A DNA stretch of 64,000 bases from Stegostoma tigrinum (taxonomy: Eukaryota): NCBI RefSeq assembly GCF_030684315.1, contig NC_081361.1:32043861-32107860 (forward strand), written 5' to 3'. Shown here piece after piece: positions 2,330 through 63,108 of this stretch. The translations under genes were made by a program, and so were the position numbers. The notes beneath the pieces were generated by a model. That model searched no databases and had not been told where the DNA came from. It was given only the letters and a program-made list of their open reading frames with translations. Numbering within the stretch: the first letter of the stretch is position 1; each line of letters opens with the position of its first letter.

Positions 2330-4182
2330 ATGAGAAATATACCAGGTAGGAAATCGCCTGAGTCTGATCAAGTCCATCCTGGGACATTGTGGGAGGCTAG
2401 GGAAGAAAGTGCAGAGGCCCTGCAGAGATTTTTGCTTCATTTTTGGCCACTGGTGAAGCTCTGGAAGACTAGAAAGTGGCTAATGTTATTCCATTCTTTA
2501 AGAAAGGTAGCAAAGACAAGCCAGGGAACTACAGGCCAGTAAGCCTGGCATCAGTGGTAGGTAAGTTGTTGCAGAGGAATCTAAGGGACAGGATCAACCA
2601 ACATTTGGATAGTCTAGGTCTGATTATGAATAATCAGCATGGATTTGTGCACGGGAAGTCATGTCAGACAAATTTTTTTAGAGAGTTTTTCGAAGAGATA
2701 ACCAAGAGGATGGATGAGGATAGGGCAGTGGATGTTGTCTATATGGACTTTATTAAGGCCTTTGAACAAGGTCCCACACAGCAAGTTAGTCATGAAAGTT
2801 AGGTCGCATGGGATCCAGGGAAAGTTAGCTAATTGGATTCAAAATTGGCTCAATAGTAAGAAGCAGAGGGTGATGGTTGAAGGTTGTTTCTCAGACTGGA
2901 GGCCTGTGACCAGTGGTGTGCCACAGAGGTCAGTGCTGGGATCTTTCATGTAAATAACAAATAACAATGATCCGGATGTGAGTGTACAAGGTGTGATTAG
3001 TAAGTTTGCGGATGATGCAAAGTAGGTGATGTTGGAAGCAAAGAAGATTACCAAAATTACAGAAGTTGTCCACGTGTGGAATGAACAGCCAGAAGTAGTG
3101 GACGATATGGGCACAGTTACAACGTTCAAAAGACATTTGGATAAGTACACAAATAAGAAATGTTTGGAGAGATATGGGCCAGGAGCAGGCAGGTGAGACT
3201 AGTTTAATTTGGGATTATGGCCTGCATGGACTGATTGGATCAAAAGGTCTGTTGCCGTGCTGAATGACTCTATCTTGATCAAACAGGGAGGAAGTGGGCT
3301 GAAGAGATAATGGGAACTGCAGATGCTGGAAGGGTCTAGGCCCGAAACGTCAGCTTTTGTGCTCCTGGGATGCTGCTTGGCCTGCTGTGTTCATCCAGCC
3401 TCACATTTTATTATTATGGAAGTGGGCTGAAGATTGGCAAATACAATTCAACACAGATAAATGCGAGGCATTGCATTTTAGAAAGTCAAACTAAAGTAGG
3501 ACTTATACAGTAAACAGTAAGGTCCTGAGAAGTGTTGTAGAACAGAGGGGCCTAGAAGTATAAGTACACAGTTCATTGAAAGCAGCATCACAGGAGGACA
3601 GGGTGGTGAAGAAAGCATTTAACATGCTGGCCTACATAGTCGAGGCATTGAGTTATAGGAGTTGGGACGTCATGTTACAGCTGTATAAGTTATTGGTGAG
3701 GTTGCACTTGGAGTATTGTGTACAGGTTTGGTAACCCTGTTATAAGAAAGACATAGTTAAACTGGAAGATTTACGAGGATGTTGCCAGGACTGGTAGGCC
3801 TGAGTTATAGGGAGGGGTGACCTTACTGAGGTGAATAAAATCATGCGGGGCGTAGAAAGGATGAATGCATATTGTCTTTTTTCCAGGGGTGGGGAAATGA
3901 AAACTAGAGGGCATGGGTTTAAGGTGAGAGGGGTAAAATTTAAGAAGGACCTCAGGGGCAGCTTCTTCACAGTGTTGCAGATATGGAATGGGCTGCTGGA
4001 GAAAGTGGTCAAAGCAGGTACAACAGCAACATTTAAAAAAAGATTTAGATAGGTACATGGATGAGAAGAGCTGAGAGAGAAATGGACCAAATGCCGGCAA
4101 TTGGAACGAGCTAAGTGGGCACCATAGTCAGCATTGACTAGTTTGGGTTGAAGGACCTATTTCCATGCTTTACTACTCTATG
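2330..4182 (+). mobile_element. CR1/HER1-type LINE RT region with nested insertions
   Basis: ANVIPFFKKGSKDKPGNYRPVSL, QHGF, VDVVYMDF, SGVPQRSVLG, KFADD and CR1 3' end. Confidence 0.92.
3306..3417. mobile_element. Minimal inverted PLE-end insertion inside a CR1 LINE, 16-bp TSD
   Basis: TSD ggaagtgggctgaaga at 3290-3305 and 3418-3433. About 25 nt of reversed 3' tail is joined to about 90 nt of the opposite orientation. Confidence 0.85.
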
Positions 4183-5859: not shown

Positions 5860-5990
5860 CCATTTCTGAAGAAGGGTTCCAACCCGAAATGTCAGCTTTC
5901 CCGCTCCTCTGATATTGTCTGACCTGTTGCGTTCCTCCAGCTCCATACTGTGTTATCTCTGACTCCAGCAATGGCAGTTTTTAGTATATG
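5860..5990 (+). mobile_element. Single-orientation PLE-end insertion (second subfamily), 12-bp TSD
   Basis: TSD agtgagaacttc at 5848-5859 and 5991-6002; starts at ctgaagaagggttccaacccgaaatgtc. Confidence 0.8.
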
Positions 5991-12695: not shown

Positions 12696-12914
12696 AGATA
12701 CTAAGATCTGCCAATGCTGGAGTCAGAGATAACACAGTGTGGAACTGCAGGAACATAGCAGGCCACGCAGCATCGGAAGAGCAGGAGAGTCCCAACTCAA
12801 AACATCAGCTTTTCTGCATTTCTGAAGAAGGGCCCTGACCCGAAACGTCAGCTTTCCTGTTCCCCTGATGCTGCCTGCCCTGCTGTGTTCCTCCAACGCC
12901 ACACTGTGTTGTCA
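12696..12914. mobile_element. Palindromic PLE-end insertion (second subfamily, CTGAAGA motif), 14-bp TSD
   Basis: TSD aaataccactactg at 12682-12695 and 12915-12928; motif ctgaagaagggccctgacccgaaacgtc. Confidence 0.85.
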
Positions 12915-14149: not shown

Positions 14150-17100
14150 AATATGCTGTATGCAGCAGGGAGCACAATGAACAAAGCAAATGAATTACAG
14201 GTCTACTTTAAGGGTGGATCATGGTAATATTCACTGAAGCAAGGCTGCAAGACAGTCAGGACTGGGAACTAAATATAGCAGGCTATAAAGCTTCTGAAGA
14301 CATAAGAAACAGGAATAACTTTAGTTATCAACACAGAAACATAGAAAATAAGAGCAAGAGTCGGCCATTTCACTGTTCAAGCCTGCTCCGGCATGCAATA
14401 TGATGATGGCTGATAGTCCAACTTATTACCCTGTTCCTGTTTTCTCCCTATACTCTTTGATCCCTTTAGCTCTCATAACTGTATCTAACATCTTCTTGAA
14501 AACATTCAATATTTTGGTTTCAGCTGTTTTCTGTGACAGACAGTTCCAAAGGCTCACCATTCTCTGGGTGATAAATTTTCTTCACATCTCAGTCCTGAAA
14601 GGCCAATCTCGTTTCCTTAGACCATGACCCATGTTTTGGGACTCCTTGATCATCAGGAATATCCTTCCTTTGTTTACCTTGTCTAGTCATGTCTGAACTA
14701 TATTGGATTCTATCAGATCTCTCCTCATTCTTTGACACATTAATGAACATAGTTCTATCCGCTCCAGTGTCTCTTCATATGTCAGTCCTGCCATCCCAGG
14801 AATTAGTCTGGTAAATCTTTGATGCTCTCCCTCCATCACCAGGATTTCCTTCTTCAGAGAGAAGACCAAATTGCTCACAATACTCAAGGTGCGGCCGCAC
14901 CAAAGCCCTGTCCAATTGCTGTAAAACGTACCTATTTGTGTACAAGAACCCTCTCACTACAAAGGCCAACCTTTTGCCTTCTTCACTGCTTGCTTACTTT
15001 CAGCAATTGGTGTTCAAGGACTCCCTGATCTGATTGCAGAGAGGTTAGGTATGAAATAAAAGCAATGAAAGCAGAGGATAAGACCGGAGGTAAACAGGCA
15101 GTGGAGATATTCTGGCAGAAATAAGAAACAGAAGAGATTTTACAAATGGAGGGGGAATTACAAATAGCAGCCCTGCTCAGTAACAGCTGAGAAGAGGTAA
15201 AAAGCATAAATGTAGAAATCAAACAAATGTTTAGCAAAGCAAAATGGTTTTCATGGCATTTTTTCTTCTTAAAGATTAGGATAAGCATTCGAGCACATAT
15301 CAGAAATATAGTAGGGATCTGAGATCAAACAAGGGATCAGGCCACAGCAGATTCAGGAATGAGTAATGAACAAAATTTAATTAACAGGCTAACGGCAAGA
15401 TAACATTTCCATAACAAACGTAATATGACTGAGCTCAACACAACATTTAAAAGGGAGAAACACAAACAGCTAGCAAGGTTCTAGATTTAGGCAAGGCCAA
15501 CTTCAAAGCAACAAGACAGAGACCGACAAAGAAGATAACTCTATTATTAGGTAAAAGGACAAGATCAGTGGAAGATGTTCAAAAATAATTTCGCGCGCTG
15601 GTTAACATCACTAAGGGGACAGGAGCCCTACTTGTCAAAAAAAAGGCAGCTATAGACACCTGAAGAAGTAAGAGACAAAATAAAACAAAAAGAAAAAGCA
15701 CATACAAATGCAAAGAAAATTGCACAGATCCTGTTAACTAAAAGAAAAAAGGGACAGCAAAAGGTGACAAAACACATAAGTTTGTTACTCTGAAGGATAA
15801 AGGATAATGAAACAAAACTTGCATGGATATCAAAGTCTCAGATTTTTTTTAAACAGTTATATCAGGAAGTAGTAGTTCAGTAGATACTTGGATCTCTGAT
15901 ATTGTAACTGACAATAAGGAAATAGCAGGCATGTCGAACATCACTACATAAGCATTTACTATGAAGAAAATAGATATCTTGCCAGGTGTTCTAGGAAAAC
16001 TAATACTGATTCAGGATGAGGACTCACCAAAATGAACAGAACAAAGTAAAACACTGCTGAAGAAAATAAAAAGGAAGTGAGAAGTTTCCACAAGTGGATG
16101 GTTTCCAATTTGGGTTTCAATAGGATTTGGTGTGACAATGCAGATATCCTAACTTTAAACTTCCAAAGTTGGCTCGATAAGAGGACTGTTTATTTAGGCT
16201 AGAATATGAAATGGTTCCTTCATGTAAAAAGGTTGGATGGGTTAAGGCAGGAATTTATTAACCAGTTAACTTATTACCTATTGAGAAGAAATTTCTGGGA
16301 GCTGTAATTAGGTAGGTCGTGAATCAACATTTTAGAAGTTTTTCAAGATGGTTGGACAGACAGCAATGATTTGTAATAAGCAGAATCATGCCAGTCAAAC
16401 TTGACAATTTTTTTTGAAGAGGCGATGAAAGGAGTGGACAAGACAATGCCATTGGATGGTATTTGTAGAGTTCCAGAAAGCAATTGATAAAGTCTTTCTA
16501 ACAGACTGCTTTTTAAAGTTGAAAATCATGGAATTTAAGAGAAATAACTGACCTAGTTAGGTAACTAACTGAGCAGCAAAAGACAAGGAATGGGGATAAT
16601 AAAGGCTAGGTATTCCAACATGCAGAATGCGACTACAGGAATCCTGTGAAGATCTGTGCTGAAGCCTCAACTATTCACCACATTTATTAAGGACTCCGAA
16701 GATGGGATAGAAAACCTATATTCATATTTGTCAATGTGATAGAAGATTACAGGCAGTACAGCTTCTCTTCATCTTTGACACTGGCTATCAGGACCCTGGA
16801 AAGGCCAGCATTTGTTTCTCATCTCGGAGTTGGGCACACAATCTATTAATATCGTTTTGTAACTTTAAGTGAATTGGCAAAATGTAGCAAACAGATTTCA
16901 AAGTCAGCAAATACGACATCATCTCACGTTTTAGTGCAATATTTAAACTAGACCTAAAAAGAACACAGTAACCTATAAATAATGATATTATAGAGCATGA
17001 AAGGGCTTGGAAGTCCATTAAATGGATCATTAAAATTTCATGAGTAGGTACAGAAAATCATCAAAACTGCAAATGGCTTTATTGTAGAGAATCAGAATGC

Positions 17101-17660
17101 AAGAGGCAGAAAGGATGCTCCAGCGAATGGAATCCCGGTCAGAGCACACTGGGAATACTTACAGCAGGTCTGGTCACCACACCACTTGAAGGATATACTG
17201 GAGCTAGATTCCTACATTATCAGGAGATATTGCACAAATAGAGTTGTATTATCCTGAATTCAGAAGATCAGTGGGTGATTAAATCAAAGTTTTCAAGACA
17301 ATAGTATGAACGAGAAAGGGACAAAAACAATATATGATGGCTGGACAATTTCAGAGCCAAACATCTGAGTGAAATTAGCAAAGTGTGGAGCTGGATGAAC
17401 ACAGCAGGCCAAGCAGCATCTCAGGACCATAAAAGCTGACGTTTCGGGCCTAGACCCTTCATCAGAGAGATGACCCTAGAACCTCTCTGATGAAGGGTCT
17501 CAGCCCGAAACGTCAGCTGAGATGCTGCTTGGCCTGCTGTGTTCATCCAGCTCAACACTTTGTTATCTTGGATTCTCCAGCATCTGCAGTTCCCATTATC
17601 ACTGAGTGAAATTAGCAACCATTTACCACACAGGATAGATGTTTAGAACTCTCTTTGACA
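14150..17660 (+). mobile_element. Old, long CR1 ORF2 remnant (APE to RT) with an antisense CR1 (about 14335-15030) and a PLE nested inside
   Basis: IFTEARLQDSQDWELNIAGY (APE-like) and decayed RT motifs; the antisense insert gives RALVRPHLEYCEQF. Confidence 0.7.
17382..17601. mobile_element. Short palindromic PLE-derived insertion with two inverted hammerhead-like motifs and 17-bp TSD
   Basis: TSD ctgagtgaaattagcaa at 17365-17381 and 17602-17618; motifs at 17438-17465 (-) and 17487-17514 (+). Confidence 0.9.
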
Positions 17661-17707
17661 AAGGGCAATTTATCTTGGAACTTAAAACAATTGCCATCAT
17701 CAGGAAA

Positions 17708-19061
17708 TGTGAGGTTGGATGAACACAGCAGGCCAAGCAGCATCTCAGGAGCGCAAAAGCTGACGTTTCGGGCCTAGACCCTTCATCACAGAGGGGGATG
17801 GGGTGAGGGTTCTGGAATAAATAGGGAGAGAGGGGGAGGCGGACCGAAGGTGGAGAGAGTATAGGTGGGGAGGTAGGGAGGGGATAGGTCAGTCCAGGGA
17901 AGACGGACAGGTCAAGGAGGTGGGATGAGGTTAGTAGGTAGGAGATGGGGGTGCGGCTTGGGGTGGGAGGAAGGGATGGGTGAGAGGAAGAACAGGTTAG
18001 GGAGGCAGAGACAGGTTGGACTGGTTTTGGGATGCAGTGGGCGGAGGGAAAGAGCTGGGCTGGTTGTCTGGTGCAGTGGGGGGAGGGGACGAACTGGGCT
18101 GGTTTAGGGATGCGGTGGGGGAAGGGGAGATTTTGAAGCTGGTGAAGTCCACATTGATACCGTTAGGCTGCAGGGTTCCCAAGCGGAATATGAGTTGCTG
18201 TTCCTGCAACCTTCGGGTGGCATCATTGTGGCACTGCAGGAGGCCCATGATGGACATGTCATCTAAAGAATGGGAGGGGGAGTGGAAATGGTTTGCGACT
18301 GGGAGGTGCAGTTGTTTGTTGCGAACCGAGTGGAGGTGTTCTGCAAAGCGGTCCCAAGCCTCCGCTTGGTTAGGAGGCTTGGGGACCGCTTTGCAGAACA
18401 CCTCCACTCGGTTCGCAACAAACAACTGCACCTCCCAGTCGCAAACCATTTCCACTCCCCCTCCCATTCTTTAGATGACATGTCCATCATGGGCCTCCTG
18501 CAGTGCCACAATGATGCCACCCGAAGGTTGCATATTCCGCTTGGGAACCCTGCAGCCTAACGGTATCAATGTGGACTTCACCAGCTTCAAAATCTCCCCT
18601 TCCCCCACCGCATCCCTAAACCAGCCCAGTTCGTCCCCTCCCCCCACTGCACCAGACAACCAGCCCAGCTCTTCCCCTCCGCCCAATGCATCCCAAAACC
18701 AGTCCAACCTGTCTCTGCCTCCCTAACCTGTTCTTCCTCTCACCCATCCCTTCCTCCCACCCCAAGCCGCACCCCCATCTCCTACCTACTAACCTCATCC
18801 CACCTCCTTGACCTGTCCGTCTTCCCTGGACTGACCTATCCCCTCCCTACCTCCCCACCTATACTCTCTCCACCTTCGGTCCGCCTCCCCCTCTCTCCCT
18901 ATTTATTCCAGAGCCCTCACCCCATCCCCCTCTCTGATGAAGGGTCTAGGCCTGAAACATCAGCTTTTGTGCTCCTGAGATGCTGCTTGGCCTGCTGTGT
19001 TCATCCAGCCTCACATTTTATGATCTTGGATTCTCCAGCATCTGCAATTCCCATTAACTCC
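17708..19061. mobile_element. Penelope-like element 3' end (GIY-YIG C-terminus plus pLTR) as a 1.35-kb palindrome with 15-bp TSD
   Basis: Arms about 17705-18363 and 18373-19018, 9-nt spacer. Encodes RFAEHL...PVANHF...EQQLIFRLGTLQPNGINVDF. TSD gccatcatcaggaaa at 17693-17707 and 19062-19076. Confidence 0.92.
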
Positions 19062-20091
19062 GCCATCATCAGGAAAGGCTTGTTAAGAAAACTTTTGAAA
19101 CTTAAGACTAAAGTCTCAGGACATCATGGATTTCAGTTGCAGAGATGATAGATTCCTACATTCCAGAAAATTTCAATTAGATTGGAAAATAGTGAATCGA
19201 CCTCCCCTATTCAAGACAAGAGGGAGACAGAAAGCAAGAAGCTACAGGCCAGTTAAACTATTCCTGTTCTTTTTACCTATGAAATTAAAGTCACTACAGT
19301 CCCTTCGGCCATACGCTGCTCTCTCATTAGACAGACAACTGGTGAAAAATCTAACCTGAGGGTCACCACACTTCAGGTGAAGGACAAGGCTGAGAATGTG
19401 AGGTCTTCAGGGTGACCTCAGCCAGTATAGATATTAACCTGTGCTGTTGGCGTGACTGTGTGTCACAAACTAACTGCAAAGGCAACAGAGCTAACCAACC
19501 GCCACAATGGGGGCAAAGATCAGAGACTTTGTAGATGCTGTTGCTAAAAGGCATGACGCAGGTATTACCATTCTAATAGGCTCCAGGTTAGTACCCAGCC
19601 CAAACAATGGGATAGCCTGCCTAATGGGAGGGCTATGAGATTCTGAAAGTGTTAAGAGACAGCAGTCTGTTATGGTTGTTAAGATCAGGAAACAAAAATA
19701 CCAGATGCTATCTATTCTCAAGTTTACCAGCATCAGAGCGATTGTTACGGCTTCTACAGAGCTGTGGGTATCCACTGGTGCTTAAATGCTTTTTAGGTCG
19801 ACATCTGTTGCAGGTTGCAATCAAGCTGCTAGAGACTCCACCACGGCCCTGTTGTGCTGCAATGGTGGTGTCCCTACCCCTGGACTGGGAAGCCCGTGTT
19901 CAAGTCCCACCCGCTCTAGAGGCGTGCAATATCTCTGAACTGGTTGGTTAGTAAAAATAGGTATACCCTCTATTAATTCCTCCAAAAAAGAAATAGCTTT
20001 CTGGCTGTCACAAATGAGAGCTATTGCTTGAACAGTTGCTTCTGTCAATTGTCACACATCCCTAAAGACTGACCTCTGTCAGTGCATAGTA

Positions 20092-21201
20092 CAGTCAGTG
20101 CTGCTATAATGCGTGCTCCGGCAAGGCAAATTGGCGATAACACGATTCCATCGGTGCATGAAGGAGTACACATCGACATCACATGTTCATTTTGCAAGCT
20201 TTGTTCTGAGCATGCACAACGTTAGCACCGAAAGTGTCTCAGCACTGGCATCATGTGAACGCAACTGACATTATTGTGGAGACCTGGGCTGATGTCAGTA
20301 AGGACTGCTTGCATGCTGTTCAGTGGAAGCTTCTCCCAGATTTTTTTCACGATATTAAACGCTTTGATCTGTCAGAGGAGCTCCCACAAATCAAAGAACA
20401 CTGTGTTCATCTTGCTAAGCAACTGGATATGAAGTGGAGAATGAGGATATTGAAGAACTGCTTGAATCCTATTGTGAAGACCTCTCTCCAGCTGAACCAC
20501 AACTTGTTGCTGAGGGGAGGTGGAAGCTGGAGACGAAGAAGACGAAGACCAGAATGCAACATCATAAGAGCTTTCTACTTCTGATTTTGCCTTCCATCCT
20601 GAGGGAAATTGAGAAGCAGTTGCAACTTTTGGAGGTCAATTACTACAATGCAGAACACAACAGGGTAGCAGTTTGTGGAGTAAGAACTTATTTGGCACCC
20701 TATGAACATCTTCTTCATGAAAGAAGAAAAAGGGCAAAACAGCAAAAACTGGAGGTCTTTTTCAAGCCAACCCCCAAGAAACAATCAGAAGACAATGAAC
20801 CACAGCCATCAACTTCCAGAATAACTATTTTTCATCCTAATCCTGCAACCACAATTGCAACTGAAAGTGATGATAATGATGACAATGGCGATGACGACAA
20901 CCCTCAGCCCCTGTACTAACAGCAGAAAAAGCTCAAAACCTCATTCCCCATCAAGTCATTTTGACATTGTTTCAAGGTAAGGTGTTTAAATTTAATTTTA
21001 TTTCATTATTAGATAGGAATTAAATATTTATTCAAACTGTGCTATTCTTTGTGTTAGGGTTTTGAGTGACTTTGAGTGATATTTTTTGCTGGACTGCCCC
21101 TAACCCCACTTGTCCCAGAGGCCTCGTTATTTCTATAGCTCGACTTTCTATAATACTGTTGCATAAGAAACTCAATTATCGCGTTATAGCAGAACTCACT
21201 T
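20092..21201 (+). mobile_element. Internally deleted Tigger/pogo-like DNA transposon
   Basis: TA-flanked TIRs cagtcagtgctgctataatgcg / cgcgttatagcagaactcactt (18/22 match). Transposase C-terminal remnant (W..VSKDCL, EDIEELLES, KQQKLEVFFK) with a frameshift. Confidence 0.85.
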
Positions 21202-22231: not shown

Positions 22232-22605
22232 TCGAGTCATACAGCTTGGTAACAGACCCTTCAGTCCAATCACTCCATGCCGAACATAATCCCAAACTAA
22301 ACTAGCCCCACCTGCCTGCTCCTGGCCCATATCCCTCCAAACCTTTCCTATTCATATACTTATCCGAACATTGTAATTGTACCCACATCCACCACTTCCT
22401 CAGGAAGTTTACTACACACGCAAACCAGCCTGTGTAAAAAAATTTTGTCTCCTCTCACCTTAAAAATGTACTCCTTTGTCTTGAAATCCCCCATCCTACA
22501 GAAAAAACAACAATCATTAACTTTATCTATACCACATATTATTTTATAAACTTCTATCAGATCACCTGTCAACATCCTATATGCCAGTTAAAAAAGTCCC
22601 AGCCT
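22232..22605 (-). mobile_element. CR1/HER1 3' end
   Basis: LTGDLIEVYKII...KLPEEVV plus tail. Confidence 0.85.
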
Positions 22606-24202
22606 ATCTTGTTCATGACCCCACCCCCAACCACGTAAACATCATCCCCAAGATCATCCACAACCTCATCACTTCAGGTGAGCTCCCACCCACAGCCTCC
22701 AACTTAATCATTTCCCAACCCCACACAACCAATTTCTATTTTGGGCAGCACGGTGGCTCAGTGGTTAGCACTGCAGCCTCACAGTGACAGGGACTCAGGT
22801 TCGATTCCAGCCTTGGGTGACTGTCTGTGTGGAGTTTGTATGTTCTCCCCGTGTCTGCGTGGGTTTCCTCAGAGTGCTCCAGTTTCCTCCCACAGTCCAA
22901 AGATGTGCAGGCTAGGTGGAACGGCCATGCTAAATTGCCTGTAGTGTTCAGGGGTGTGTGGGTTATAGGGGAATGGGTCTGGGTGGGAAGCTTCAAGGGG
23001 GCGGTGTGGACTTGTTGGGCTGAAGGGCCTGTTTCCACACTGGAGAGAATCTAATCTAATGTAATCTCCTTCCCAAAATCCACAAACCTGACTGCCCTGG
23101 TCGCCCCATTGTCTCCGCCTGCTCCTGCCCCACTGAACTTATCTCGACTCCATTTTCTCTCATTTTAGTGCAGGAACTCCCCACCTATGTCCGTGACATC
23201 ACCCACGCCCTCCACCTCCTCCAAAACTTCCGATTCCCTGGCCCCCAACACTTCATCTTTACCACTGACGTCCAGTCCCTAAACACTTACATTCCCCATG
23301 CAGATGGCCTAAAGGCCCTCCGCTTCTTCCTCTACCGCAGGCCTGACCAGTCCCCCTCTTCTGACACCCTCATCCACTTAGCTGAACTCGTTCTCACCCT
23401 TAACAATTTTTCTTTCAATTCCTCCCACTTCCTACAGACAAAGGGAATGGTCATGGGTACCTGCATTGGCTCAAGCTATGCCTGCCTCTTTGTACATTAC
23501 GTGGAACAATCTCTCTTCTGGAGCTACACTGGCCCTACCCCCACCTCTTCCTCCGCTATATCAATGACTGTATCGGCGCCACCTCGTGCTCCCACAAGGA
23601 GCTCAAACAGTTTATCCACTTAACCAACACCTTCCAACCCAACCTTAAGTTCACCTGGACCATCTCTGATACCTCTCTCTCCTTCCTGGATGTCTCTGTT
23701 TCCATCTCTGGCAACCACCTGGAAACCAATATCATTTCAAGTCTACCAACTCCCACAACTACCTAGAATACACCTCCTCTCACGCACCTTCCTGCAAAAA
23801 TGCCATCCCCTGTTCCCAATTCTTTCGCTTCCACAACATCTGCTCCCGAGAGGAGGCATTCCACTCCCAGACATCCCAGATGTCCTCGTTTTTCAACGAC
23901 CTCAACTTCCCTTCCACAGTGGTCAAAAACACCCTCGACCGTGTCTCTTGCATTTCCCGCAACTCATCCCTCACACCCCCTCCCAGCAATAACAACCAAA
24001 ACAGAATCCCCCTTGTCCTCACGTACCACCCCACCAACCTCAGGATCCAACGCATCATCCTCCGGCACTTCTGCCATCTGCAATCTGACCCCACCACCAA
24101 AGACATTTTTCCCTCCCCACCCTCAGCTGCTTTCTGGAGGGACCACTCTCTCCGTGATTCCCTTGTCCACTCCATGCTCCCCACCAGCCCCACCACATCC
24201 CG
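22605..24202 (+). pseudogene. Degenerate Penelope-like reverse transcriptase ORF fragment, interrupted by a SINE
   Basis: FY|LLPKIHKPDCPGRPIVS, DVQSLNTYIPH, NNFSFNSSHFLQTKGMVMG, RYINDC (decayed YIDD), RIPLVLTYHP; multiple frameshifts. Confidence 0.9.
22743..23062 (+). mobile_element. HE1-like SINE inserted into the PLE RT
   Basis: Full head, core and tail; splits the FY/LLPKIHK coding sequence. Confidence 0.9.
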
Positions 24203-25294
24203 GATATGAATAGGAAAGGTTTGGAGGGATATGGGCCAAATGCAGGCAGGTAGGACCAGTTTAGTTTGGAAACATGATCAATGGGGACTAGTTGGATCGA
24301 AGGTTCTGTTTCTATACTGTACTGTTCTATGGCTGTATGATTCTAAGTAGTATACTTCTTATATTTTGGAGTTTTCTGAGGATCATTTGAATGACACCGT
24401 GGCCACATTTCACAGGAGGTAGTTGACAACCTGCTCCACAGCCACTGCCAATTTTAAAACATGCTTCCTAATCTAGTCTATACAATGCTTAAATCTGCCA
24501 GGTGTACAATGCAAGGAATACAATAACCAAACTGTTAACATGGTGAATCAACTCTTTCCAACTAAAATGACTGTCCTTCCCACTTTCGTCATCCTCCCCT
24601 TTCTTCTCTATCACATATTACAACTATTTTCCCTTCATTTCCCTTTGTGTATCTTCTTCTGTTACTGTTGCTTTTCCTCTGCCCAGCAAACTGTATGGTT
24701 TCTGCGCACTTTCAAAGTACATGTGCAAAATTCCACAACAACGAAATATCACATCACAGACATGAGTTATAGAACAGAAATTACCTTAAAAAGCATTTAA
24801 AGCAGAGTAAATGAAGCCTGCTGAGATGAGAAGTATCAATTAATGCCTACTGTTACATTCTTGTCTTGATCTCTAATAACATATGGAGATTTCATTATAA
24901 ATATAGACTCTTTTTGATTGCCACACAGAACTAATATTCCGTGCTCTTTGGGGTATTCTGCTGGAAATAGGTCAGTTTATTTTGAAAACAAATCTTTTGA
25001 TGTACTACAAGAAAGCTTCTATATAATTTCTCAAGCTTAATTACACCTTACACACTACATACATCACCATACAATTTTTGTTTATATATTTTATTCACTA
25101 TCTACACATGCTTAAAATTCAAATTATTTTGGTGAATATTATTCATTTGCTTGCCTGCAACTAGAAAGTTTATTGTAATTAGGTATCAAATTTCAGATGC
25201 ATTCCATTTGGTCTGAATTCCAGAACACAGCCACAAAGCCGTTTTTGTTTCGGATATTTTAGCCGCTTTCAAACAACATCGAGGAAAAGAGAGG

Positions 25295-40187: not shown

Positions 40188-41215
40188 TAATAAAATGTGA
40201 GGCTGGATGAACACAGCAGGCCAAACAGCATCTCAGGAGCACAAAAGCTGACGTTTCGGGCCTAGACCCTTCATCAGAGAGGGGGATGGGGAGAGGGAAC
40301 TGGAATAAATAGGGAGAGAGGGGGAGACGGACCAACCCTCCCGAACCGGTTCTTCCTCTCACCCATCCCTTCCTCCCACCCCAAGCCGCACCCCCAGCTA
40401 CCTACTAACCTCATCCCACCTCCTTGACCTGTCCGTCTTCCCTGGACTGACCTATCCCCTCCCTACCTCCCCACCTACACCCTCTCCACCTATCTTCTTT
40501 ACTCTCCATCTTCGGTCCGCCTCCCCCTCTCTCCCTATTTATTCCAGTTCCCTCCCCCCATCCCCCTCTCTGATGAAGGGTCTAGGCCCGAAACGTCAGC
40601 TTTTGTGCTCCTGAGATGCTGTTTGGCCTGCTGTGTTCATCCAGCCTCACATTTTATTATCTTGGAATCTCCAGCATCTGCAGTTCCCATTATCTCTGGT
40701 ATCAATGTGGACTTCACCAGTTTCAAAATCTCCCCTTCCCCTACTGCATCCCTAAACCAGCCCAGTTCGTCCCCTCCCCCCACTGCACCACACAACCAGC
40801 CCAGCTCTTCCCCCCCACCCACTGCATCCCAAAACCAGTCCAACCTGTCTCTGCCTCTCTAACCGGTTCTTCCTCTCACCCATCCCTTCCTCCCACCCCA
40901 AGCCGCACCCCCCGCTACCTACTAACCTCATCCCACCTCCTTGACCTGTCCGTCTTCCCTGGACTGACCTATCCCCTCCCTACCTCCCCACCTATACTCT
41001 CCTCTCCACCTATCTTCTTTACTCTCCATCTTTGGTCCGTCTCCCCCTCTCTCCCTATTTATTCCAGTTCCCTCTCCCCATCCCCCTCTCTGATGAAGGG
41101 TCTAGGCCCGAAACGTCAGCTTTTGTGCTCCTGAGATGCTGTTTGGCCTGCTGTGTTCATCCAGCCTCACATTTTATTATCTTGGAATCTCCAGCATCTG
41201 CAGTTCCCATTATCT
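40188..41215 (+). mobile_element. PLE insertion: inverted arm plus partial tandem pLTR copies, 15-bp TSD
   Basis: Inverted arm 40188-40335; forward copies about 40345-40697 and 40698-41215. TSD ctaatctctccctta at 40173-40187 and 41216-41230. Confidence 0.92.
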
Positions 41216-41895: not shown

Positions 41896-42444
<549 letters not shown>

Positions 42445-42445
<1 letters not shown>

Positions 42446-43093
42446 GGGTATACAGCCCGGGTATAGGGTACACAGTCCGGGTATAGGGCACACAGCTCGG
42501 GTATAGGGCACACAGCCCGGGTATAGGGTACACAGTCCGGGTATAGGGCACACAGCTCGGGTATAGGGCACACAGCCCGGGTATAGGGTACACAGTCCGG
42601 GTATAGGGCACACAGCTCGGGGATAGGGCACACAGCCCGGGGATAGGGCACACAGCTCGGGTATAGGGCACACAGCCCGGGTATACGGGACACAGTCCGG
42701 GGATAGGGCACACAGTCCGGGTATAGGGCACACAGCCCGGGTATGGGGACACAGCCCGGAGATAGGGCACACAGCCCGGGTATAGAGGGCACACAGCCCA
42801 GGGATAAGGCACACAGCCCGGGTATAGAGCACACAGCCCGGGTATAGGGCACACAGTCTGGGTATAGGGCACACAGCCCGGGTATAGGGGACACAGCCTG
42901 GGTATAGGGCACACAGCCCGGAATAGGGCACACAGTCTGGGTATAGGGCATAGAGTCCAGGAATGAGGCACACAGCCCAGAATAGGGCACACTGCCTGGG
43001 AATATGGCACACAGCCCGGGGATAGCGCACACAGTCCGTGAATAGGACTCACAGTTCGGGGATAGGGCACACAACGCGGGAATAGGGCATAGC
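42445..43093. repeat. 20-bp minisatellite (gggtatagggcacacagccc), about 32 copies, with a 60-bp higher-order repeat
   Basis: Directly visible; 42481-42540 is identical to 42541-42600; units degenerate toward 43090. Confidence 0.97.
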
Positions 43094-46000
43094 GCATGAG
43101 CTGGTCATGGAGCTCGAGTGCGAATTTCGGGAGTGGGTCTCAGAGCCTGGGAGCACACCTCCAACAATCTCTGCGCACACTACAAAACACAGATAATTTG
43201 CACAATCTAATCGATTCCGTACGGTGTGATTCCGTGTTATTTTCACTATCGTATTTAACTCGTGGGTAACCAAGTTACTAGAGACAATCTAGTTTACTCG
43301 GCATACTTCTTATTTTGAACGATGTCTCACCACAATACCTCAACAACTGGCCGTTTCTTAATAAAGCTGCAAGTGTTTCGTGTGTTCTGAACATTTACTT
43401 TGCACAATGTGTCAGCGTGGACATATTTCAATTATCTGGGATTTAATCCTCCATAAAATTCCAACGTCTGAATGAGAGGGGCGGAGCATGATCAAACCTG
43501 TTGCAAAATGAATGCATTGCCCTACCCAATTCAGAAAAGAAGTTTATAAAGATCGATTTTAAATAAAAAGAATCTAATGTTTGCCTACAATTGCAGCGTC
43601 ATCAGAATTTTACCCCCGAATGTTCTATGTCGTGCGCGAAAAGTTACATTTAAAGGACGCTGGTCTCATTACGAGTTTTGATTTTCATTTGGTCTCATTT
43701 GCAAGACGTTCCAGCTCAGCTTGTGTTCCAGCCGCAAGAAAATCATTGGTGTCTCGCGTGCATATTTTGGTGTTACGACCGTATCAAATGCATGGCCTGC
43801 CCTGAAGTTAACTGCATATATACTGATGATTTTCAGTTTTGAAAGTTACCATGTGTTGCACTAATTTGCAATCGTATCCAATGCTTTTGTAAAAGCAGAG
43901 ATGACTCAGAAATCACATATGTTTACAAGCCCCTAAAAGGCCTCCAATGAGTTGGATGTGTCCTAAAACTACTACTCTGATGTATATATTTTTTACTGAA
44001 ATTTTATGATACTCTCGCTGCCCTGCTGCAGGAGGAAAGGAAATAAAGCATCACCGATCATTGCTAATTTTACAAGACAACGGTGGCATACTGGTAATGT
44101 CACTGCAGAAACAATCTAGGACCCCAGACGAAGGCTAATGAAAGTTCAACAGAGTTAGTGAATCCGGAATTGCAAGCTCGTGTTTAGAGTGGTGGCAACC
44201 ATTACGTCAAAGACCGAACAGGTAGAGGGGCTCTTCTGACACAGTCGTAGTGTCCCTACCCCTCTGCCACAAAACCTGAGTTAAAAACCCCACGTCCTCC
44301 AGGGCTGTGTCATAACACAGCTGAGCAAGTGAATTCAAAATATCTATTATAGGACGGGTACACCTTCAGTTTGTGGGTCCTAAGGAACAGAATCCATTCT
44401 ACAGAAACTCCATTCCTATTCCAGTTAATTGATCATCTTTTGCAACATCTGGCGCTTTTTTTTAAAGAAAAGAACCATCTGGTTCACTAATGCCCTATAG
44501 GGAAGGTGATCTGCTATCCTTTTATAGTTTGGTCAGTGTATGACTCTACAAGCAATGTGGTCGAGCCTTGTCTATCAAGTCACTTGGTTCAAGGGACAAT
44601 TCGTGATGGATAACATCCCACGAAAGACAAGCTAAATACCTCAAAATAAAGCAAAATCTGTAGGTTTTCAAAGCCAAAAATCAATCGAATGGGTAATTCT
44701 CGTACGACGTTTTCACATCAGGAATTCTGCCATAGTGGTTATTCTGGCCTGGAAGTTACCTGCTGCACGGAGTCAGAAGAACTATCCCTTCTAATATGCA
44801 TTCGCTCGCTATCGTTTGTTGAAAACACTCCCTACCCCTAATTTACCCGTAGTGTGCTCCATTCACGCAAGTTGCGTTTTGCATTCCCTACTCAATGGCA
44901 TCTGGATGCTGAGACAGAAGTGAATCCAGGTTCATATCAAATGACGGTACATTTTTATTTGACGTCTCAAAACTGATTTTGTATTGGAGAATTGGAAGGG
45001 TAAGTAATTTTAAAATGAAACGTAAAAGCATTTTGAGACACATCATGAAATATTAAACTGGGTTAGGGGCTGTAAGAGGCAGTTAGGACAATGATAGGTA
45101 GGAATGGGGGTTATGAGGACTCATTGGTGAAAGGCGAGAATGGGTTGGCATACAAGTGCATATACAGCAAGTGGTGAATGTGTGCGAGGAGGGTGCTGGA
45201 GACAGTCTAATATTTAACACAACAGGATCTATTAACTGTCACATCTTGGGACTTGGCAGCTTCTATCCTCGGAAATAACGTTCCACCCACCATTCTTCCC
45301 TGATTCCGCACATCCACCTAGAGAGCAAACCCCAGGATTCCTCAGCCTGAGAAAAACAGCTGCTGTTGTAACAAGCTGACAAAAAGGACCAATTTTTTGC
45401 TTTAACCACGAAGCGCAATGCCGGTGCGCGCGCACACGCAAACTCCGTGTTTAGCGAGATGAAGTTTTTATGTATTTAAGGACCATAGAATTGCCAGAGA
45501 GTGCTTACACGTGGAAGTCAAATCAATGAGGCTCAGAAGCCTGAGTAATTGGATATTATTTTAAAAGGAAGGGCTGCGGAAAGAGATGGTGTTGGAAGAA
45601 ACCTGGGACTTTACAGAGAAGAATACGTTTCTGCTCCATTACTCGCAGCAACGGAATGTGGCGTTTTTGCTGTGTTAAGAAATCAATGAGGAACGCCTTC
45701 TCCCTAACTGAGTACATTTGTTGCCAAATAACCAATGTTTAGTCAATGTTGAATTTAGTTTGCTTGCTGTTTGAAACATTAAGATGCAATTCTTTGCATT
45801 GGTCACGGAGAAATTCACGTCTCTTTTCAAAAAAAAATCATTGCTCCCAACAGGGATTAGGGTAAACAAGTGTTTAGATTTCATGGAGCAATAATGACAA
45901 TAACTGTTTCCTTCCATTACTAAAAACGAATGGAAAACTTATTTTGTTCTTTCCAAGAAGGGATTGAAGCTAAATTGTATGACAGGTGACCTACTATAAC

Positions 46001-50841: not shown

Positions 50842-51070
50842 TTCGGAGATAACACGGTGTGAAGCTGGATGAACACAGCGGGACAAGCAGCATCAGAGGA
50901 GCAGGAAAGCTTAACGTTTCAGGTCAGGACCTTTCCTCAGAAGAAGGGTCCCGACCCAAAGCGTCAAGCTTTCCCTGTTCCTCTGATGCTGCTTGTCCGG
51001 CTGTGTTCATCCAACTTCATACCGTGTTATCTCAGATTCTCCGGCATCGGCAGTTCCTACTATCTCTGTG
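50842..51070. mobile_element. Palindromic PLE-end insertion about 30 nt from a METTL13 splice acceptor, 10-bp TSD
   Basis: TSD acatttagtt at 50832-50841 and 51071-51080; inverted arms of about 90-100 bp; decayed motif at the centre. Confidence 0.85.
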
Positions 51071-62871: not shown

Positions 62872-63108
62872 ACAGGAACAAAAACAAAGTTGCCAGAAAA
62901 GCCCAGTAGGTCTGGCAGCATCTGTCAAGGAAAATACAGAGTTAACGTTTCAGGTCTGGTGACCCTTCCAGTTCTGAAGAAGGGCCACCAGACCCGAAAC
63001 GTTTATCCCGTTTTTCCCTTCACAGATGCTGCCAGACAGACCTGCTGGGCTGTTCCTGCAACTTTGTTTCTGTTCCCGATTTACATCATCTGCAGTTCTT
63101 TTGGTTTT
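62872..63108. mobile_element. Palindromic PLE-end insertion (third subfamily) with imperfect 14-bp TSD
   Basis: taaaggtgttagta (62858-62871) vs taaaggtattaata (63109-63122); motif gttctgaagaagggccaccagacccgaaacgtt, mirrored in the left arm. Confidence 0.8.

Follow-up and report, generated by a model that had tools for sequence, protein, structure and literature searches.

How did a near-perfect palindrome of about 1.35 kb, with a spacer of 9 nt between its arms, form in the genome of the shark Stegostoma tigrinum? The palindrome lies within the 64,000-nucleotide stretch of DNA that we analysed as a whole (the window), and it was described in a sequence-only reading of that stretch. Its arms occupy positions 17708-18363 and 18373-19015, and in the arm alignment the pairing runs from the centre (18363/18373) outward to 17705/19018. 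Self-comparison of the window recovers inverted segments at 17694-18192/18531-19029 (98%) and 18205-18355/18382-18532 (100%), so that the reported size and spacer are confirmed. The alignment also bears out the reported differences between the arms: eight substitutions (left/right 18049/18674, 18037/18686, 17810/18913, 17789/18934, 17770/18953, 17764/18959, 17753/18970 and 17715/19008), a 1-nt indel and a 14-nt indel. The left arm is short of one G in a G run 8 bp off centre, and the right arm has lost 14 nt after 18530, a deletion with 2-nt microhomology that took away half of a small native hairpin, as read in the sequence. A chance origin of the palindrome is excluded because the central 58 nt folds at z = -9.4, with 0 of 200 shuffles equally stable. 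The whole structure is flanked by a 15-bp direct repeat (17693..17707 and 19062..19076, both on the plus strand), in agreement with the retroelement insertion with TSD that had been proposed; the last three bases of the left copy (AAA) match the element too and constitute microhomology at the left arm's 3' end.

Judged by its sequence, the palindrome is one insertion of a Penelope-like element (PLE), which we take to be of Neptune rather than Nematis type from its linker and from the vertebrate distribution that we assume for such elements. Two 5'-truncated 3' ends stand head-to-head, with the tail on a single side. Each arm corresponds to a PLE 3' end, in which the endonuclease terminus is followed by a pyrimidine-rich UTR and a minimal hammerhead motif. 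The left arm (17708..18371, minus strand) is tail-less; it contains the last ~122 ORF codons, the 3' UTR and the hammerhead module, and takes in eight native bases of the spacer. The right arm (18373..19018, plus strand) is a second 5'-truncated copy and carries the 14-nt deletion. It is followed by a one-sided 3' extension of 43 nt (19019..19061, plus strand) that holds the ~37-nt PLE tail and has no partner in the left arm. The C-terminal part of the PLE ORF, down to the stop codon, lies at 17997..18365 on the minus strand and covers the GIY-YIG endonuclease downstream of the YIG motif. In a protein comparison with 18 hits among 53 candidates, the minus-strand peptide of the left arm showed 95% identity to an unnamed protein of Stegostoma tigrinum and 93% identity to one of Rhincodon typus. 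Against P0002, a Rhincodon typus protein, 79 of 85 residues of the arm peptide are identical and the frames end at one point. P0002 matches the Pfam families RVT_1 and GIY-YIG, and it is through this homologue that the single ORF with RT and C-terminal GIY-YIG of EN+ PLEs was found; the arm peptide alone matched no Pfam family because it begins after the YIG motif. A CX4CxxC linker, read by eye, is present in this close homologue, and the focal arms begin downstream of it. Two histidines of the CCHH endonuclease motif fall within the arm peptide, and the two cysteines were located by eye between the GIY-like and YIG motifs of the carpet-shark proteins P0001 and P0002. A CX2-5CxxC linker between RT and EN and the CCHH residues are features of Neptune and Nematis according to the available part of PMC8557442. 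Further features of EN+ PLE insertions are present as well: an inverted 5'-truncated copy with a 30-40 bp tail at one end, a TSD of variable length (15 bp here), and a hammerhead motif within the terminal repeat, the last found by pattern search in the right arm and in neighbouring copies.

The family is very abundant, with 240,774 contigs from sequencing run X1 alone, a depth that gives no copy number. It has two discrete 3' ends 37 nt apart, one tail-less and one tailed (1257 and 746 contigs, respectively, in X1; 1247 and 743 in X3), and these two sites are the loose ends at 17568 and 17605 of the neighbouring insertion C. Metagenome contigs and viral contigs, scanned with exact patterns of the family, each yielded 0 loci, and no publication dealing with the present shark PLE family came up in the mostly open-access literature that was searched, supplements excluded. 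In neighbouring copies a frame that begins with an ATG beyond the hammerhead reads through the tail and may be the start of the element ORF; in the focal right arm this frame (18980-19057) ends in a stop. Elsewhere in the window, a decayed PLE fragment reaching from RT to linker (22600-24206) is P0002-like by eye, has no Pfam match and is interrupted by a SINE-like repeat at ~22743-23050.

Minimal hammerhead motifs, as defined in the accessible portion of PMC4209133, lie at 17761..17789 in the left arm (minus strand) and at 18934..18962 in the right arm (plus strand), and both copies are changed at conserved positions. In the left copy the first core base has changed from C to G at a position where 98% of the family has C, and the right copy has two CpG-type changes, at 18953 and 18959. 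With these changes both ribozyme copies look disabled; the effect of the C3G change is taken from the part of PMC11167929 at hand. Rfam returned no match at the gathering score. The isolated 66-nt hammerhead segments were no more stable than their shuffles (z values of +0.7 to +1.1), the outcome to be expected of motifs that presumably need dimers, and this result counts neither in favour of the motifs nor against them. Three of the six outer arm differences fall on conserved hammerhead positions, namely the left core C to G and the two CpG decays on the right. As an explanation of the left core change, selection against cleavage of the dynamin transcript by the ribozyme was not adopted because two other sense-oriented copies (17465 and 40277) retain intact cores.

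A search of the window with the right arm and the hammerhead pattern, together with self-comparison, yielded eight hammerhead-bearing insertions, which we label A to H, the focal palindrome being D. Seven of them have head-to-head arms and a one-sided tail, as judged by eye, and H is a single copy. TSDs of 10-17 bp flank seven of the eight, none having been found for G. Arms longer than 200 bp occur in D alone, and the arm ends nearly coincide in four of the seven two-armed insertions (C, D, F and G). In the window this PLE family usually inserts with head-to-head arms, a layout that has also been published, and the framing of the palindrome as an anomaly is weakened accordingly. Insertion A (3306..3417, 16-bp TSD) is head-to-head, with 25 nt of tail on the left and a right arm running from the hammerhead to the tail-less end; its arms have no sequence in common, and it would be the cleanest sign of two separately primed cDNAs. 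Insertion E (40188..41215, 15-bp TSD) joins an inverted tail-less arm to a partial tandem of two tailed copies. The inverted arm is identical to the distal copy at 149 of 149 positions and differs from the adjacent one, and E is a young insertion with a private variant common to all three copies. C (17382..17601), a short head-to-head insertion of the same family as D with a 17-bp TSD and its tail on the right, sits 106 bp from D and has a 13-nt centre apparently patched from local sequence. Older, diverged palindromic hammerhead-bearing PLE stubs are found at 12696-12914 (B), 50842-51070 (F) and ~62875-63100 (G), and H (~5860-5990) is an older, diverged single copy with a 12-bp TSD.

The palindrome is best explained, with a probability that we put at about 60%, by an integration in which both target strands were primed, probably on one RNA. 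The endonuclease would cut both target strands 15 bp apart, and both 3'-OH ends would serve as primers for reverse transcription, which would start at the tail end from one of them and at a tail-less internal start site from the other. The two cDNAs would grow toward each other, as the one-sided tail, neighbours A and E and the behaviour of an anole PLE in vitro suggest. A single RNA molecule would serve as template for both as far as its broken 5' end, the first cDNA being displaced by the second. A template jump or end-joining would then link them, with one untemplated base at the junction, and the arms would have mutated separately since that time. A separate cDNA for each target strand is supported by the unrelated arms of A and by the identity of the inverted arm of E with the distal copy. 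In D the two 3' ends point outward and coincide with, or lie close to, the two end sites of the family, and the copies meet across one foreign base. The cDNA ends lie 8 nt apart; C, F and G stop at the hammerhead, whereas the ends in D are ~560 nt upstream of it. One RNA copied twice is the simplest reading because the ends are so close to each other at such a distance from the hammerhead. Both arms carry family-rare alleles at 18068 (99.7% of the family with the other letter), 18162 (96%) and 18331 (85%), as counted in the best 40 of 125 rows, and therefore come from one source. One RNA and two transcripts of one source copy would be expected to give the same outcome, and we infer the mechanism from one long locus. 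In a search of the mostly open-access literature, no paper turned up that traces PLE palindromes to twin priming.

The sequence-only reading had proposed a fold-back or template switch during integration. Formation at integration agrees with our analysis, but a simple fold-back of one cDNA is not supported because neither arm contains the other whole and the turn is unpaired. Both arms do end in the GIY-YIG region, as had been stated, but not at exactly the same point: the left arm reaches 8 nt further at the centre, the right arm extends 43 nt further on the outside, and each of these stretches is absent from the other arm. Since family contigs run on beyond 18371 in the left arm's direction, where the left arm has its loose end, spacer bases 18364-18371 (of 18364..18372) are native element continuing that arm, and 18372 is the one foreign base. 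The base at the turn of a fold-back would be left unpaired, and the terminal base indeed faces a mismatch. A version in which the nascent strand, or an antisense RNA, copied itself and a later small deletion made the centre asymmetric is possible, if unlikely. The traces of a true fold-back could have been lost through such a central deletion once the element was inserted, the arm ends lie within 8 nt of each other, rare family alleles are common to both arms, and junctions of this kind are read as self-priming on an antisense template in the available part of PMC3846280. The nearly coincident ends of C, D, F and G also point in this direction; however, C, F and G end at the hammerhead, likely a common stop, so that their symmetry is not independent evidence, and a fold-back is no option for A and E. 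For D, end-joining or a jump between two cDNAs accounts better for the sequence than a fold-back of one cDNA. If both strands were instead primed on two RNAs, for example by an enzyme dimer, or if templates were switched within the outer module, from hammerhead to tail, some of the outer arm differences would have been present at insertion. We consider this quite improbable. Six of the eight substitutions do fall in the outer 110 bp, which is the module found in short copies, E holds a partial tandem of two slightly different copies, and a dimer is predicted in the part of PMC11167929 at hand. However, independent ends within 8 nt, so far from the hammerhead, are seldom expected, CpG decay, which is typical of later mutation, accounts for two of the outer changes, and the inverted arm of E exactly equals its distal copy.

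It is highly improbable that the palindrome is an assembly artefact, produced by a fold-back chimeric long read or by polishing that equalised the inner arms with mis-mapped short reads. Read-derived contigs from four runs in three studies were compared over 16900-18420. The centre of D was bridged by no contig among the matches listed for this stretch, the zone of few differences starts about one short-read length from the unique flanks, and the 240,774 family contigs in X1 alone also speak for an artefact. However, an X1 contig, from an individual that is possibly the assembled one, bridges 17582-17731 with 0 differences and confirms the left junction. The 15-bp TSD, the one-sided tail, the changes private to each arm (two indels of the inner part among them) and the same layout in six neighbours all argue against an artefact, and polishing would explain at most the gradient of differences, not the structure. 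In the relative that we call organism B, a contig joins 17364 to 17602, and C is absent. The match of an organism B contig also breaks off at 17707, precisely where the TSD ends, and D seems to be absent from organism B on the basis of nine further, unaligned letters of this one contig. Organism B differs from the window flanks at 25 of 564 bases (4.4%). Contigs of a further organism, organism C (run X15), gave no coverage of the unique flanks and bear neither way on the insertion. The insertion of D is real and appears to be recent.

The differences between the arms are unevenly spread, a pattern not expected if two identical copies had simply aged. In addition to the outer cluster of six, no substitution lies in the inner 300 bp. 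At this one locus and in post hoc tests, KS gives p = 0.004 for substitutions and 0.03 with indels, and a segment holding six of the eight substitutions anywhere has p = 0.007. Polarised against the family, the changes private to the left arm are 17715, 17753, 17789, 18049 and the 1-nt deletion, and those private to the right arm are 18686, 18953, 18959, probably 18913, the 14-nt deletion and three in the tail. Private substitutions number nine in 265 outer and tail bases versus two in 1080 inner bases (p = 2e-5, post hoc). With indels the outer-versus-inner contrast has p = 1.5e-4, and CpG decay affects 2 of 4 outer versus 0 of 28 inner sites (p = 0.012), both again post hoc and at one locus. 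Candidate causes of the gradient are chance, short-read polishing, GC-biased arm-to-arm repair and different templates for the outer module. Plain unbiased gene conversion is a weak candidate; more shared rare alleles would be expected than the two to three common to both arms in the inner 540 bp (best 40 of 125 rows).

The palindrome had been placed in intron 1 of a dynamin gene. The coding part of dynamin exon 1, with its GT donor, lies at 42088..42249 on the minus strand, which is consistent with this placement; a search of the window with dynamin peptide motifs turned up none of the later exons, and exon 2 would therefore lie beyond the left end of the window. A METTL13 exon at ~54.3-54.6 kb, also on the minus strand, lies upstream of dynamin exon 1, and by synteny this neighbour suggests that the host gene is the DNM3 orthologue. 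Just upstream of exon 1, a GC-rich tandem repeat array (42300-43140) is seen as repetitive ORF translations. ORF fragments at 20210-20919 resemble a decayed pogo/Tigger-type transposase; the second fragment has no Pfam match. The proposed capacity to form a hairpin of ~650 bp holds in principle, with 1296 of 1354 nt paired in the predicted fold of the minus-strand RNA (helices of 226, 153 and 151 bp). If the dynamin intron is transcribed through D, ~650 bp of dsRNA would be predicted, as for other inverted TE pairs. D itself is dead and, as an intronic insertion, probably neutral.

As a single locus D matters little: it is one dead insertion of a very abundant family, with a layout already in print. 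Its value is that of a data point: short copies stop at the hammerhead, but the junction of D is far away from it, and the 8-nt offset, the foreign base and the rare alleles common to both arms are relevant to the formation of inverted PLE copies, which the literature consulted here calls unresolved. D has persisted for long enough that both arms acquired mutations, and its pairing is interrupted at 8 and at 158 bp from the centre. Should the outer excess of differences prove genuine and widespread, it would suggest that a vertebrate repairs kilobase palindromes from arm to arm. The wider proposition that long shark PLE palindromes record twin priming on the same RNA in turn, and persist by mutual repair of their inner arms, is doubtful. 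If it were true, shark genomes would provide a large natural series for the mechanism of PLE integration, and this series would also inform on the tolerance of the vertebrate germ line for near-perfect palindromes.

With regard to known systems, long similar arms and a short spacer are risk factors for breakage in the portion of PMC7999016 available, and the maintenance of inverted repeats has been argued for nematodes (PMC1803023, in part). Drosophila Penelope, according to the available part of PMC3681739, has rearranged copies with long inverted repeats that are able to make dsRNA, as does D; siRNAs are produced there, whereas D is known from DNA sequence alone. Among PLEs, D is an unusually long example of an already described layout. 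The inverted insertions of EN+ PLEs are treated in Craig et al. 2021 (PMC8557442), whose accessible part describes an inverted 5'-truncated copy with a 30-40 bp tail often at one end only, and in Arkhipova et al. 2013 (PMC3846280), where the part at hand describes inverted pLTRs with palindromes at the junction. Like D, these insertions have head-to-head arms, a tail at one end, TSDs of variable length, nearby partial tandems, a C-terminal GIY-YIG and a hammerhead within the repeat. In contrast to what these parts describe, both arms of D are truncated at nearly one point inside the endonuclease, and arms of ~650 bp face each other across a 9-nt gap with no element body between them. The TSDs of 10-17 bp in the window also compare with 8-10 bp given there for rotifer PLEs.

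For the Poseidon PLE protein of the anole, the available parts of Frangieh et al. 2024 (PMC11167929) report that both target strands are cut and extended in vitro, that two RT start sites bound the tail, and that a dimer is predicted. The shark PLE resembles it in the two start sites bounding the tail, the presumed cutting and extension of both strands and the hammerhead in the pLTR; head-to-head joining of the two cDNAs is not described in parts 1-2 of 4 of that study. In contrast to the shark PLE with its CX2-5CxxC linker, Poseidon belongs to another clade.

Twin priming with internal duplication was reportedly described for L1 by Ostertag and Kazazian in 2001. Twin priming of L1 with overlap is also described in the accessible part of bioRxiv 10.1101/2024.08.27.596794: as in the reading that we prefer for D, two target nicks prime on one RNA, and overlap arises once one cDNA passes the priming site of the other. 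D is likened here to twin priming and not to an L1, having no poly(A) and a different enzyme. Unlike in L1, the primers of D would start within ~40 nt of each other, so that the overlap is nearly total and the product is a palindrome.
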